Shown: positions 6,147 through 16,166, counted from the stretch's first letter. The stretch is 21,745 nucleotides of DNA from a virus (IMGVR_UViG_3300029102_000023), one strand, 5' to 3'. Notes: generated from the sequence alone by a model not told the origin. Numbers and translations: made by a program.

Positions 6147-6700
6147 ATTCCAAACCCCATTTGCCCCGACTCATCTTCAAGCGGTAAAGGTATTCTCCCA
6201 GAGTAAGTTATGTTCAGATGTTTACAGAAGTAATTCCAATACCCTACCAGGTCATCTGGGTTTATGTCATCTTCGATTGGAAACGCTATTCTATCACTAT
6301 AGTATCCAGCTTCTTCATAGTATACATGGTAGTGAGCACCGTAAATGATATCTTGGTACTTCGGATGATCGACCTTGTAACTATTCGTGTGTTTGTCAAA
6401 GTGATAGGTATCTACCGCGAAAACCCTCTTGTTATGATAGAAAGCAATAATATTTATTTTAGGGTAAGAAATCGGGTCATCAGGTTCTGAATCCTGATCT
6501 GGTTTCCATTTCAGTTCAAACTTTAGCCCTTGTATAGGTATACAATCCTCATCCAAGGGGATGATATGGGCTTGTAGCCACATATCAGAGCGACTTGGTT
6601 TCTGTTTCCATTTAACGCCAGAAAAGTTAACTATTTTTTTACAATAAAGTACTTTATCAACTTCTACTTGGCTTGGCTGATAATCATCTATTTTTGCCAA
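6143..6700 (-). CDS. Unknown protein A, 185 aa (first gene of the cassette downstream of cI)
   Basis: Intact ORF 39 nt downstream of the cI stop on the same strand; acidic, Tyr/His-rich, no hydrophobic segments; the track start at 6700 is a TTG codon (next in-frame ATG is at codon 40), so the true start is uncertain. Confidence 0.65.
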   Translation of the reverse strand: MAKIDDYQPSQVEVDKVLYCKKIVNFSGVKWKQKPSRSDMWLQAHIIPLDEDCIPIQGLKFELKWKPDQDSEPDDPISYPKINIIAFYHNKRVFAVDTYHFDKHTNSYKVDHPKYQDIIYGAHYHVYYEEAGYYSDRIAFPIEDDINPDDLVGYWNYFCKHLNITYSGRIPLPLEDESGQMGFGI

Positions 6701-12427: not shown

Positions 12428-12811
12428 ATGCGTGATATTCAGATGGTTCTTGAGCGTTGGGGTGCGTGGGCGGCTAATAATCATGAAGATGTGACCTGGT
12501 CGTCCATTGCCGCCGGTTTTAAGGGATTAATTCCTTCAAAAGTAAAATCTCGCCCGCAATGTTGTGACGATGACGCGATGATCATTTGCGGGTGCATGGC
12601 CCGTCTGAAAAAGAACAACAGCGATTTACACGATTTATTAGTAGATTATTATGTATGTGGTATGACATTCATGTCACTGGCAAGTAAGCATTGCTGCTCG
12701 GATGGTTATATCGGGAAAAGGTTACAGAAGGCTGAGGGCATAATTGAAGGGATGTTAATGGCATTAGATATCCGGTTAGATATGGATATCGTTGCTAATA
12801 ATTCTAATTGA
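12428..12811 (+). CDS. quuD: Late-gene antiterminator Q (DLP12 QuuD / phage 82-21 type), 127 aa
   Basis: [62 protein letters not shown]... with Cys-rich zinc-binding region; GGAG Shine-Dalgarno before ATG at 12428; the track start at 12413 is a TTG extension. Confidence 0.85.
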
Positions 12812-12834
12812 TATGCAATTGTTTACTAAAAGTT

Positions 12835-12861
12835 ATTAAAAATGGGGCGTGGAAACGCCCC
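12835..12861 (-). terminator. Rho-independent terminator candidate downstream of the porin gene
   Basis: Stem GGGGCG(12844-12849)/CGCCCC(12856-12861), 6-nt loop; on the minus strand the hairpin is followed by ATTTTTAAT. Confidence 0.5.
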
Positions 12862-12950
12862 CAAAATAAAGGGTAATATATAACAGAAGGTTTATATAGT
12901 AAGAAGCAAGGTAGTGCTTCTAAAGGAAGTGGCTTGAGGGCTCCACTTAT

Positions 12951-12988
12951 ATGTTGCGGAGGCAAAGCCTCCCGCAACATATCTTTTT
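12951..12988 (+). terminator. Plus-strand hairpin with T-run (tR'-like candidate) shortly downstream of Q
   Basis: Imperfect 13-bp stem ATGTTGCGGAGGC/GCCTCCCGCAACAT (12951-12980) followed by ATCTTTTTCG. Confidence 0.45.
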
Positions 12989-12999
12989 CGTAAGTCAGA

Positions 13000-14082
13000 T
13001 TAGAACTGATAAACCAGACCTACAGCGACGATGTCGTCGGTATCAATACCAGCTGTTTTGGTAAACTTACTATCGTCAATTAAGTTGATTTTGTAATCAA
13101 CAAAAGTGGACATGTTTTTATTAAAGTAGTAAGTAGCACCGACATCGACATACTTGACTAAGTCTCGGTCACCATGAACACCAAGGTCTTTACCTTTTGA
13201 CTGAAGGTAAGCAACAGATGGACGCAGACCGAAGTCAAACTGATATTGTGCTACTGCTTCAAAGTTTTGTGCTTTGTTTGCAATATGGTTATTACCAAAA
13301 ACGGTCATATTCTGAGTTTCAGAATATGTGGTAGCCAGATAGATATTGTTCGCATCATATTTCAGGCCTGCAGCCCATACTTCCGCATTTTTGCCGGAGG
13401 CATTGAATTTGCTCTTACCATAGGCGACCTGACCGTCAGTGCGATCTGATTTAGCATAGGTTGCACCCACGCCGAATCCTTCATACTCATAAGTAGTGGA
13501 GAAACCGAAACCATCACCATTGGCTTCAGTTACGTCAGTGCGGTCATTTTTACCCTGATACTGAGCAGCAAAGTTCAGGCCATCGACCAGACCAAAGAAG
13601 TCGTTGTTACGATAAGTTGCAACACCAGTAGTGCGACCAGTCATGAACACATCTGTTTGGGTCCAGGTATCACCACCGAATTCTGGCAGAACGTCAGTCC
13701 ACGCACCGATGTCGTATGCTACACCGTAGTTACGGCCGTAATCGATTGAGCCGTAATCACCAAATTTCAGGCCTGCAAATGCAAGACGGGTTTTGTCTTT
13801 GGAAGAACCTTGAGATTCAGCACGGTTGCCTTTGAATTCATATTCCCACTGACCGAAACCAGTCAGTTGATCGTTGATTTGGGTTTCACCTTTGAAGCCA
13901 AGACGGGCATAAGTAGTATCACCATCATCTGCATCATTAGAGGAGAAGTAGTGCTTGGCATTAACTTTCCCGTATAGATCCAGCTTGTTACTGTCTTTAT
14001 TATAAATTTCAGCTGCCTGAGCAGACATCGCCATCAGTACTGATGCAGCTACAGCAGAAATTGCCACTGTTAATTTTTTCAT
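13000..14082 (-). CDS. nmpC: Outer-membrane general porin (OmpC/OmpF/NmpC family), prophage-encoded, 360 aa precursor
   Basis: Signal peptide [23 protein letters not shown] then [23 protein letters not shown]... and C-terminal ...VAVGLVYQF (terminal Phe, beta-barrel signature); antisense between Q and the lysis genes as in DLP12. Track ORF start at 14142 is an upstream in-frame extension. Confidence 0.93.
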
Positions 14083-14450
14083 TGTACGCCCTTTTTTTGA
14101 ACTTTTATTAAAAAATGATGTCACTGCGCGATAAATATTCATCTAATCAATGTGATTATTTCAAGATGTAAGTTTTAGTTTCTCATTTAATTTGTGAAGT
14201 AGATCTCTATTTTTATCTGAACCTTTTCTATCTAATCCTATTCATGGCTCTTGTCTGAACAAAAATAAATCTATTAGCTAATTTATATTAATGGCACTTA
14301 TTTATAAGTGCTCTATAATTCTTTAGCTTAATTTAAACAAACTAAAAATAACATCGGAAATTATTAACTGGTTATTTGTTGAAGTTTTCTTATGCATTTG
14401 TGGTGGTGTTTTGAACACTCGGTGGCATTCTCACAAATATCATTTAGTAG

Positions 14451-14478
14451 TTTACGTACGTAAAAAATTGGTTATGCT
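14451..14478 (+). promoter_or_regulatory. Candidate promoter with perfect 14-bp palindrome TTTACGTACGTAAA (possible late promoter pR' or qut-associated site)
   Basis: TTTACG (14451-14456), 16-bp spacer, TATGCT (14473-14478); the palindrome at 14451-14464 overlaps the -35 hexamer; lies ~30 bp upstream of a strong plus-strand terminator and ~190 bp upstream of the holin gene. Confidence 0.3.
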
Positions 14479-14508
14479 GTTAAGAGTGGTTACTTCGTCA
14501 CACAGCTT

Positions 14509-14541
14509 AAACCCGCCGTCGAGCGGGTTTTTCCATTTTTT
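14509..14541 (+). terminator. Rho-independent terminator upstream of the lysis cassette (tR'-like candidate)
   Basis: Stem AAACCCGC(14509-14516)/GCGGGTTT(14523-14530), loop CGTCGA, followed by TTCCATTTTTT. Confidence 0.65.
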
Positions 14542-14670
14542 GAGTCTCGATATTAGCTGATAACCCAATACCTGAGTTATTCACTGACTCCGAATCTGTT
14601 ACGTTTCTGCCTTTATTGCGATACGTAGTATCCCCTTAATTTACACCCGCTTTGTCTGCGAGGTGGGGTT

Positions 14671-14886
14671 ATGAAATCCATGGATAAGTTAACAACGGGT
14701 GTCGCCTATGGTACCTCAGCAGGTAGTGCCGGGTACTGGTTTTTACAGTTGCTCGATAAAGTCACGCCCTCACAGTGGGCGGCAATAGGTGTGCTGGGTA
14801 GCCTGGTATTTGGCCTGCTGACGTACCTGACAAACCTTTATTTCAAGATTAAAGAAGATAAGCGCAAGGCTGCGAGAGGTGAATAA
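14671..14886 (+). CDS. essD: Class II holin (phage 21 S-type pinholin), 71 aa with dual start
   Basis: [71 protein letters not shown]; two TM segments; M1-K-S-M4 dual-start motif typical of holin/antiholin pairs. Confidence 0.9.
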
Positions 14887-15383
14887 TGCCTCCATCATTA
14901 CGAAAAGCCGTTGCTGCTGCTATTGGTGGCGGAGCAATTGCTATAGCATCAGTGTTAATCACTGGCCCAAGTGGTAACGATGGTCTGGAAGGTGTCAGCT
15001 ACATACCATACAAAGATATTGTTGGTGTATGGACTGTATGTCACGGGCATACAGGAAAAGACATCATGCTCGGTAAAACGTATACCAAAGCAGAATGCAA
15101 AGCCCTCCTGAATAAAGACCTTGCCACGGTCGCCAGACAAATTAACCCGTACATCAAAGTCGATATACCGGAAACAATGCGCGGCGCTCTTTACTCATTC
15201 GTTTACAACGTGGGTGCTGGCAATTTCAGAACATCGACGCTTCTTCGCAAAATAAACCAGGGCGATATCAAAGGCGCATGTGATCAGCTACGTCGCTGGA
15301 CATATGCTGGCGGTAAGCAATGGAAAGGTCTCATGACTCGTCGTGAGATTGAGCGTGAAATCTGTTTGTGGGGTCAGCAATGA
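14886..15383 (+). CDS. rrrD: SAR endolysin (lysozyme, phage 21 R-type)
   Basis: 165 aa with N-terminal Gly/Ala-rich signal-anchor-release segment ([20 protein letters not shown]) followed by a lysozyme-like domain; start overlaps the holin stop. Confidence 0.92.
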
Positions 15384-15841
15384 ACAGAGTAACCGCGATT
15401 ATCTCCGCTCTGGTTATCTGCATCATCGTCTGCCTGTCATGGGCTGTTAATCATTACCGTGATAACGCCATTACCTACAAAGCCCAGCGCGACAAAAATG
15501 CCAGAGAACTGACGCTGGCGAACGCGGCAATTACTGACATACAGATGCGTCAGCGTGATGTTGCTGCGCTCGATGCAAAATACACGAAGGAGTTAGCTGA
15601 TGCGAAAGCTGAAAATGATGCTCTGCGTGATGATGTTGCCGCTGGTCGTCGTCGGTTGCACATCAAAGCAGTCTGTCAGTCAGTGCGTGAAGCCACCACC
15701 GCCTCCGGCGTGGATAATGCAGCCTCCCCCCGACTGGCAGACACCGCTGAACGGGATTATTTCACCCTCAGAGAGAGGCTGATCACTATGCAAAAACAAC
15801 TGGAAGGAACCCAGAAGTATATTAATGAGCAGTGCAGATAG
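15380..15841 (+). CDS. rzpD: Spanin inner-membrane subunit Rz (i-spanin), 153 aa
   Basis: [26 protein letters not shown]... N-terminal TM segment then coiled-coil-like region; ATG at 15380 overlaps the endolysin stop (ATGA). Confidence 0.9.
15600..15782 (+). CDS. rzoD: Spanin outer-membrane lipoprotein subunit Rz1 (o-spanin), embedded in Rz in the +1 frame
   Basis: [23 protein letters not shown]... lipobox VVGC; proline-rich ([15 protein letters not shown]); fully nested within Rz. Confidence 0.85.
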
Positions 15842-15872: not shown

Positions 15873-16166
15873 TTATTGTGAGCAATACACACGCGCTTCC
15901 AGCGGAGTATAAATGCCTAAAGTAATAAAACCGAGCAATCCATTTACGAATGTTTGCTGGGTTTCTGTTTTAACAACATTTTCTGCACCACCACAAATTT
16001 TTGCTGCATCGACAGTTTTCTTCTGCCCAATTCCCGAAACGAAGAAATGATGGGTGATGGTTTCCTTTGGTGTTACTGCTGTAGGTTTGTTTCCAACAGT
16101 AAACGTCTGTTGAGCACATCCTGTAATAAGCATTGCCAGAGCGGCAGAAAACAACATTTTTTTCAT
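15873..16166 (-). CDS. bor: Bor lipoprotein (serum-resistance moron), 97 aa
   Basis: MKKMLFSAALAMLITGCAQQTFTVGNKPTAVTPKETITHHFFVSGIGQKKTVDAAKICGGAENVVKTETQQTFVNGLLGFITLGIYTPLEARVYCSQ; lipobox ITGC; matches lambda Bor. Confidence 0.9.
   Translation of the reverse strand: MKKMLFSAALAMLITGCAQQTFTVGNKPTAVTPKETITHHFFVSGIGQKKTVDAAKICGGAENVVKTETQQTFVNGLLGFITLGIYTPLEARVYCSQ

Follow-up and report, generated by a model that had tools for sequence, protein, structure and literature searches.

The Shiga toxin (Stx) phages 933W, VT2-Sakai (Sp5) and SC370 carry, at the end of gene Q, a segment annotated as 'putative late promoter', 'putative Q-utilization' and 'possible rho-independent terminator', which in 933W is a textbook late promoter. 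In these phages the unit and the Q stop codon overlap, the leader gives rise to the small RNA StxS, and the lysis genes come only after a second terminator (+258), tRNA genes and stx. In lambda, the pR'/6S RNA/tR' arrangement, with a terminated RNA of 194 nt, is served by a Q protein of an unrelated family (PF03589). In phage 21 (structures 6P18 and 6JNX), the -35 element, the Q-binding element, the -10 element, the start, the pause element TAAGCTG and the terminator are packed into about 85 bp. A unit homologous to that of the Stx phages is described here in IMGVR_UViG_3300029102_000023, a viral DNA of 21,745 nucleotides (hereafter the window, from whose first letter all coordinates are counted). 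It comprises positions 14451-14541 (91 bp), behind a porin gene and ahead of the lysis genes, and we give a probability of about 0.87 to the reading that it controls the late genes of a PA-2/DLP12-type prophage, serving as pR', Q-loading site and tR'. The preliminary description of this DNA had suggested a displaced unit of the pR'/qut/tR' type at this place, and homology to the late promoter, the Q-utilization site and the first of the terminators annotated in VT2-Sakai, 933W and SC370 supports the suggestion. The unit of the window, with a predicted terminated RNA of about 50 nt, has no sequence homology to that of lambda.

Homology to the late promoters of Shiga toxin phages

The unit consists of the following elements.

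14451-14464, no strand: perfect 14-bp palindrome TTTACGTACGTAAA, holding the -35 hexamer in its left half and the relic of an ancestral Q stop codon; candidate Q-binding element (sequence; comparison with 933W)
14473-14478, plus strand: TATGCT, -10 hexamer of the late promoter (counterpart in the alignment: annotated TATCAT of VT2-Sakai and SC370)
14485, plus strand: predicted transcription start, an A (homology to the Sakai start and 3'-end data)
14481-14501, plus strand: conserved block TAAGAGTGGTTACTTCGTCAC with a candidate pause element and a small 5' RNA hairpin (alignment A1)
14509-14541, plus strand: predicted intrinsic terminator, tR'-like, with an 8-bp stem and a 6-nt loop followed by UUUUUCCAUUUUUU (terminator scan and fold)

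A sensitive DNA search of phage records aligns window positions 14448-14532 with the segment of the 933W-type Stx phages at about 78% identity. The VT2-Sakai promoter, TTTACG and TATCAT separated by 16 bp, has the -35 hexamer, the spacing and the TAnnnT pattern found in the window; the TAAGAGTGGTTAC block is invariant in the Stx phages and the window, the stem CCCGC/GCGGG is common to both, and the centre of the palindrome is AT in 933W and TA in the window. Direct reading places the palindrome where it had been described, with the -35-like hexamer TTTACG (14451-14456) as its first six bases, and TATGCT (14473-14478) after a spacer of 16 bp (14457-14472). These hexamers, already chosen in the preliminary description, are the ones annotated in the 933W-type records, and they also fit the start site determined in strain Sakai by differential RNA sequencing (dRNA-seq). 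The position ahead of the lysis genes was likewise given correctly, the holin ATG lying at 14671, 130 bp past the hairpin.

In Sakai, the terminated RNA measures 258 nt from the pR' start to its 3' end, according to dRNA-seq and Term-seq (PMC7547250). The T-run of the second annotated terminator in the VT2-Sakai locus (L005) ends at 1195, which puts the start near 938, an A seven bases past TATCAT; the aligned base of the window is 14485, where transcription would by analogy begin. Reading TGnTAAGAG as a true extended -10 promoter conflicts with the start deduced from the Sakai data and was abandoned. Homology to the Stx phages stops at the first hairpin, at about +48, and no StxS-type RNA (a 258-nt precursor with a 74-nt Hfq-binding 3' fragment) was recognised in the window, where, in contrast to the Stx phages, the holin gene follows a single hairpin. 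A scan against Rfam returned no credible RNA family, only two sub-threshold chance matches.

Taken one by one, the elements of the unit are not beyond chance. TTTACG agrees with TTGACA at 4/6 positions and TATGCT with TATAAT at 4/6, including the critical T-12, A-11 and T-7; perfect 14-bp palindromes number three in the window and 1.46 +/- 1.15 in dinucleotide shuffles; and the fold of the leader is unremarkable (z-score only -1.4). What raises the unit above chance is its conservation, and the case is one of sequence comparison. The conserved block TAAGAGTGGTTACNTNGNCAC is present once in the window (0.01 copies expected), with no further copy even when three mismatches are allowed, and at least 120 viral contigs have it in an unchanged architecture; a search of papers for its literal sequence gave chance hits only. 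The TAnnnT pattern of the -10 hexamer is kept in nearly all variants among the matches listed. Of 5,426 complete E. coli genomes, 2,656 contain the unit as a 101-bp sequence, with no annotation on it.

Prophage context and displacement of the unit from Q

A prophage 100% identical to the window is found in E. coli strains CFT073, Nissle 1917 and ATCC 25922, and the window is recognisably the right arm of a PA-2/DLP12-type lambdoid prophage. The RefSeq annotation across the region reads rusA, ylcG, quuD, porin, essD, rrrD, rzpD and iss, with which Pfam is concordant (Phage_antitermQ, Porin_1, P21 holin, lysozyme and Rz). The genes that flank the unit are these.

12428-12811, plus strand: quuD, Q antiterminator of 127 aa, Q21 family (PF06530; RefSeq)
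13000-14082, minus strand: porin gene of the lc/nmpC/OmpC family (Pfam Porin_1, E 2e-151; RefSeq; match to the PA-2 lc record J02580)
14671-14886, plus strand: essD, phage 21-type holin S, first late gene past the unit (Phage_holin_2_1, E 2e-35; RefSeq)
14886-15383 and 15380-15841, plus strand: rrrD endolysin and rzpD spanin, respectively (Pfam Phage_lysozyme and Phage_lysis; RefSeq)

The same element is found in prophage DLP12 of E. coli K-12, upstream of essD, with 100% identity from the palindrome through the terminator and 95% identity over the porin-holin intergenic region. Phages PA-2 and 434B have the same gene order as the window; the porin gene of K-12 and 434B, unlike that of the window, contains IS5, and their leader has lost 17 bp, and PA-2 has a G-to-T change in the terminator stem. 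The segment deleted in K-12 corresponds to window 14608-14624, between the terminator and the holin start. The element, already studied in K-12, is thus known and very common, and its recognition in the window was correct.

The unit overlaps the Q stop codon in the Stx phages, but in the window it lies 1.67 kb downstream, behind the porin gene. The earlier proposal that the porin gene stands between Q and its target promoter is borne out, no second copy of the unit adjoining Q. The window can be aligned with 933W-type phages through Q codons 1-120 and then not again before 14448. The palindrome of 933W contains the Q stop codon (AGT TTA CGA TCG TAA), and window 14449-14463 retains a relic of the last codons and stop of the ancestral Q, AGT TTA CGT ACG TAA. 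To judge from these codons, the palindrome was in the ancestral layout coding sequence of Q itself, and the promoter overlapped the last codons of Q. The relic stop codon and the break in homology at codon 120 and 14448 indicate that a reverse-oriented cassette of about 1.66 kb was inserted in the 3' end of the ancestral Q, moving the unit 1.67 kb downstream; Q thereby received a new tail of seven residues. The cassette evidently comprises two hairpins, the porin gene and its AT-rich upstream region, the parts beside the gene being as follows.

12844-12861, minus strand: hairpin and T-run, probably the distal terminator of the porin transcript (terminator scan; -13.8 kcal/mol, z-score -2.4)
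12942-12982, no strand: long hairpin directly after the porin stop codon, then CTTTTTC on the plus strand, with the T-run reaching 12990 (fold)
14083-14447, no strand: AT-rich porin upstream region, 26-29% GC (composition profile; homology to porin-less phages resumes at about 14448)

With about -22 kcal/mol on either strand and a z-score of -3.5, the hairpin at 12942-12982 is likely a bidirectional terminator that insulates Q from the porin gene. Besides the porin transcript, early rightward transcripts could end there.

The displaced arrangement works genetically, to judge from PA-2, other isolated phages and phage 434B, whose viability also gives indirect support to Q-dependent readthrough of the terminator. 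Separation of Q from the unit is present in PA-2 and in many isolated phages; in the plaque-forming 434B, Q, the late promoter and the lysis region have been replaced by a DLP12 segment in which IS5 puts a further 1.2 kb between Q and the unit. Such separation would be harmless because Q finds its target through DNA binding.

A slot for cargo between Q and the late promoter

The loci listed with the conserved block come from at least 120 viral contigs, and 105 of them have a PF06530 Q upstream on the same strand; the comparisons of variants that follow hold among these matches. The distance from the Q stop codon to the block is 6-41 bp in 26 of the 105 loci and 627-2462 bp in the other 79, where the intervening cargo is almost always on the opposite strand and includes porins, lipoproteins, the Kiwa protein KwaB, a KAP-type NTPase (PDC-S20), PDC-M53A and an HNH protein. 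Reverse-oriented cargo thus recurs in the interval from Q to the promoter. Such a slot is understandable, since Q works on DNA in trans and phage promoters leave the slot silent in a lysogen. The authors who described phage SfIV termed the Q-promoter region of their phage a moron (PMC3851460).

Several of the cargo genes match known or candidate anti-phage defence families: KwaB in locus L096, the PDC-S20 KAP NTPase in L027, L067, L106 and L112, PDC-M53A in L117, and an HNH protein/PDC-M68A in L055. Lipoproteins occupy the slot in L051 and L068, and window 12812-14447 is the porin version.

The palindrome as a candidate Q site

QuuD matches PF06530 with 181 bits (cut-off 26; E 7.7e-54), is 81% identical to Q933W over residues 1-120, and is distantly related to the solved structure of Q21 (6p18_P/6jnx_P, E 4e-8, residues 13-93); PF06530 is the Q21 family (PMC9388147). 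Phages 21 and 82 had been suggested for comparison, of which phage 21 proves apt, its Q belonging to the same family and its layout being compact, whereas phage 82 is the wrong comparator, its Q belonging to PF06323. The units of phage 21 and the window are alike in compactness, in the series of -35 element, Q site, -10 element and pause element beginning TAAG (Q site and pause element being candidates in the window) and in a terminator no more than about 50 nt from the start, but there is no DNA homology between the two promoter units. Q21 binds two directly repeated 8-bp subsites, ATTGAGCA and AATGAGCA, at -27 to -12; the window has no direct repeat of this kind between the -35 and -10 elements, and has instead the inverted repeat at -34 to -21. 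An alignment of QuuD, Q933W and five other types finds them without the approximately 15 residues that form the long loop between the helices of the HT[loop]H motif, and an inverted-repeat site unlike that of Q21 fits proteins of this kind.

The variants share a common plan: a palindrome, a run of A (sometimes T), TAnnnT, and G-n-TAAGAGTGGTTAC. In 41 of 48 distinct sequences listed, the longest perfect palindrome within 60 nt upstream of the block is centred 23-23.5 bp before TAAGAG, compared with 3.5% of shuffles. The palindrome of 933W, TTTACGATCGTAAA, is in the same place as that of the window. The sequence of the palindrome is specific to each group and follows the C-terminal helix-turn-helix (HTH) of the upstream Q, six types corresponding one to one.

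HTH ...KH.CSD..IGKRL.KAEG: palindrome TTTACG(TA/AT)CGTAAA (window and 933W)
HTH ...KRKCSDGTIRKELQTA: palindrome GCGTACGC
HTH ...KDEKLIRIEIQ.AEG: palindrome GCGG-T-CCGC
HTH ...KCSEGKVRLKLMIAETF: palindrome TTCGT-T-ACGAA
HTH ...LG.SHT.VLKRLQAAEG: palindrome TGGAATTCCA
HTH ...LGISLNQVVIRLQKAEG: palindrome TGTTATAACA

The Q type with LGISLNQVVIRLQKAEG has a QuuD-like N-terminal half, which indicates that the palindrome follows the C-terminal half of Q. The mutual information between HTH cluster and operator cluster is 2.08 bits, the maximum of 2,000 permutations being 1.0, although the clustering is crude and linkage could inflate the association, because the C-terminal half of Q lies nearest the promoter. 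Six sequences that are all palindromic at one position suggest a dimeric, phage-specific binder, for which Q is the obvious candidate, and the palindrome is likely a Q-binding element.

A more extended reading, for which we judge the chances to be even, would assign to a large branch of the Q21 family, that of QuuD and Q933W, the palindrome as its Q-binding element: an inverted repeat over the -35 element in six or more specificity classes, each with its own recognition helix, with a pause element over the start, Q loading on promoter escape or just past it, at about +10 to +13, and the Q-promoter gap as a recurrent slot for cargo expressed in the lysogen. The geometry of the site forms part of this reading and is held with the same reserve, the centres of the half-sites being 8 bp apart, compared with the direct repeats of Q21 next to the -10 element. 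An inverted-repeat Q site with six specificity classes, a pause element over the start and the cargo slot may be new.

Predicted pausing and termination

The invariant block of alignment A1 spans -4 to +9. The only nAnnnT hexamer in it that is followed by GG is AAGAGT (14482-14487, -3 to +3), which with the GG reaches 14489 (+5); TACTTC at +7 to +12 is without T-7, and 933W has TACATT there. AAGAGT-GG resembles both the TAAGCTG of phage 21 and the pause hexamer of lambda, AACGAT-GGG, in which GGG is the confirmed discriminator, and we propose it as a candidate sigma-dependent pause element that would hold polymerase at about +10 to +13. The sequence at +2 to +17 (14486-14501) can form a small RNA hairpin, GUGG...(U/C)CAC, which is conserved. 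A CRP site annotated by the PA-2 record near 14486-14506 coincides with this 5' hairpin, which is found in porin-less phages, and was dropped from consideration.

The terminator hairpin occupies 14509-14530, where AAACCCGC and GCGGGTTT form eight pairs (five of them G-C) around the loop CGTCGA, followed by TTCCATTTTTT to 14541. The preliminary description had called it a strong intrinsic terminator; its location stands, but the hairpin is moderate and its Stx homologue in Sakai is read through. Hairpin and U-run are kept with differing stems among the matches listed: CCCGC/GCGGG, CCCUGCC/GGCGGGG, CCUCGC/GCGGGG and GGCCUCG/CGCGGGGC. RNAalifold on 50 distinct leaders finds weak covariation in the terminator, with only two pairs changed on both sides, one stem type dominating the alignment and indels misaligning it; divergent leaders folded singly are more informative than the joint alignment. 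Termination at the single hairpin of the window is presumed to be efficient.

Proposed mechanism and alternative explanations

A sigma-70 promoter (TTTACG, 16 bp, TATGCT) would start transcription near 14485, and in the absence of Q an RNA of about 50 nt would end at the hairpin and U-run of 14509-14541, leaving the holin, endolysin and spanin genes off. On induction, QuuD made from the early rightward transcript would act in trans, binding the promoter, most likely at the palindrome over the -35 element, and loading on RNA polymerase paused just past initiation, probably through sigma region 2 held on AAGAGT-GG from -3 to +5. The modified polymerase would then pass the terminator into the late operon. 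The porin cassette, with its own promoter and terminators, would stay outside both the early and the late transcripts and be expressible in the lysogen.

Several observations weigh against this account. The literature searched yielded no transcript data for the strain of the window or for K-12, and the text part of the K-12 3'-end tables (Adams et al.) has no entry for essD or nmpC. The late promoter, with 8/12 consensus matches, falls below the 9/12 threshold of the consensus promoter scan and is not listed by it. The region +1 to +25 contains no textbook -10-like pause element, the best candidate overlapping the start site. In Sakai the homologous hairpin (L005 964-986) is passed, and the 258-nt RNA ends at the second terminator (1167-1195); in the window the holin gene is reached without a further terminator, so that termination may be leaky. 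Finally, the title of a study cited in PMC7918800 describes the DLP12 lysis cassette as RpoE-regulated.

The alternative that survives best, although unlikely, is that the promoter is real and the hairpin at 14509-14541 ineffective, control being exerted through weakness of the promoter, the leader or translation, with Q boosting elongation in the late operon. It gains from the Sakai hairpin, which the 258-nt StxS precursor passes in spite of a better U-run than that of the window, where UUUUUCCAUUUUUU is interrupted. It gains also from the PA-2-type variant, in which GAGCTGG replaces GAGCGGG in the 3' arm (window 14526) and the predicted hairpin is lost from the minimum-energy fold; this G-to-T change is present in 17 listed loci (L104 and 16 others) as well as in the PA-2 record (L002), and it suggests that the late terminator is leaky in these phages. 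On the other side, all other listed variants retain a GC-rich hairpin and U-run, with several stems, standard libraries easily fail to capture RNAs of about 50 nt, and unterminated constitutive transcription into a holin-endolysin operon would harm the lysogen.

A slightly smaller chance attaches to the possibility that a sigma-E-dependent, host-controlled promoter drives the lysis genes, with QuuD as an activator and not a classical antiterminator, the account of essD expression given in the DLP12 literature; this is compatible with late control through pR' and Q. The -35 region reportedly mattered for both RpoE and Q, as would fit a Q site over the -35 element. PMC7918800, with reference to Rueggeberg et al. 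(2013, 2015), names a Q-type antiterminator, RpoE and Hha as controlling the lysis operon of DLP12. The promoter fragment of PMC7918800, mapped by its primers, extends from window 14010 to about 14795; its designation as '-121 to +650' locates no start site, and can equally be taken as -650 to +121 from the essD ATG. Reading 14380-14480 by eye reveals no good match to GGAACTT-N16-TCAAA, the nearest GAAC is not conserved in K-12, and the Sakai homologue has been described as a constitutive late promoter pR' with a primary start by dRNA-seq. A sigma-E candidate at about 14413-14437 was dropped for its wrong spacing and for the same GAAC.

The suggestion, made in the preliminary description as a fallback, that the palindrome is an operator for porin regulation finds no support, and a role for it as a site for a porin regulator or host factor unrelated to Q is improbable. 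The palindrome does lie in the porin-holin intergenic region, and the PA-2 record places putative CRP sites nearby; yet it is 370 bp from the porin start codon, and phages without a porin, those of the 933W type among them, also have this palindrome, or one specific to their type, equally far from the -10 element, where it overlaps the Q stop codon. A host factor would also leave unexplained the one-to-one correspondence of six palindromes with six Q HTH families. Least probable of all is a true late promoter adjoining Q (12811-13000), with antisense readthrough of the porin gene and 14451-14541 a relic or an unrelated promoter, which would agree with canonical lambdoid phages, where pR' abuts Q, and with the plus-strand hairpin and T-run at 12942-12990, but the promoter scan finds no site on the plus strand of 12811-13000, the conserved block is without a second copy even at three mismatches, homology to Q933W ends near codon 120 and is back only at 14448, and the unit at 14451-14541 is conserved base for base in thousands of genomes; the single block and the lack of a plus-strand promoter-like site between Q and the porin stop codon dispose of the reading that late transcription begins next to Q.

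Other features of the region

On the plus strand of the porin upstream region, a promoter-like ATGGCA-17-TATAAT at 14291-14319 matches the consensus at 10/12 positions, closer than the late promoter, and overlaps the inverted repeat GCACTTAT-TT-ATAAGTGC (14294-14311); the equivalent site of K-12 retains TATAAT but neither the -35 hexamer nor the left arm of the repeat. The other perfect 14-bp palindromes of the window are ATAAAGTACTTTAT (6644-6657) and CATCAGTACTGATG (14032-14045), the latter in the part of the porin gene that encodes the signal peptide. Within the porin gene, GTTACGGCCGTAAT (13729-13742) fits the pattern TTTACGNNCGTAAA with two mismatches, which is at chance level (0.75 per window). 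Just past the spanin genes, an iss/bor-type serum-survival lipoprotein gene (15873-16166, minus strand) is likewise reverse-oriented and lysogen-expressed.

Biological implications

For the window the result is chiefly a correction of annotation: the unit described here marks the probable start of late transcription for a very common family of E. coli prophages, present in about half of complete E. coli genomes and unannotated by RefSeq. A porin gene outside the Q-dependent transcript explains why it behaves as a gene expressed in the lysogen and not as a late gene, and the slot it occupies is a practical place to seek lysogenic-conversion and anti-phage genes. If the palindromes are indeed bound by Q, one Q family would use two geometries of DNA recognition, and the natural pairs of Q and palindrome would tabulate, ready-made, the specificities of the Q933W-type antiterminators, by which Shiga toxin expression is controlled.

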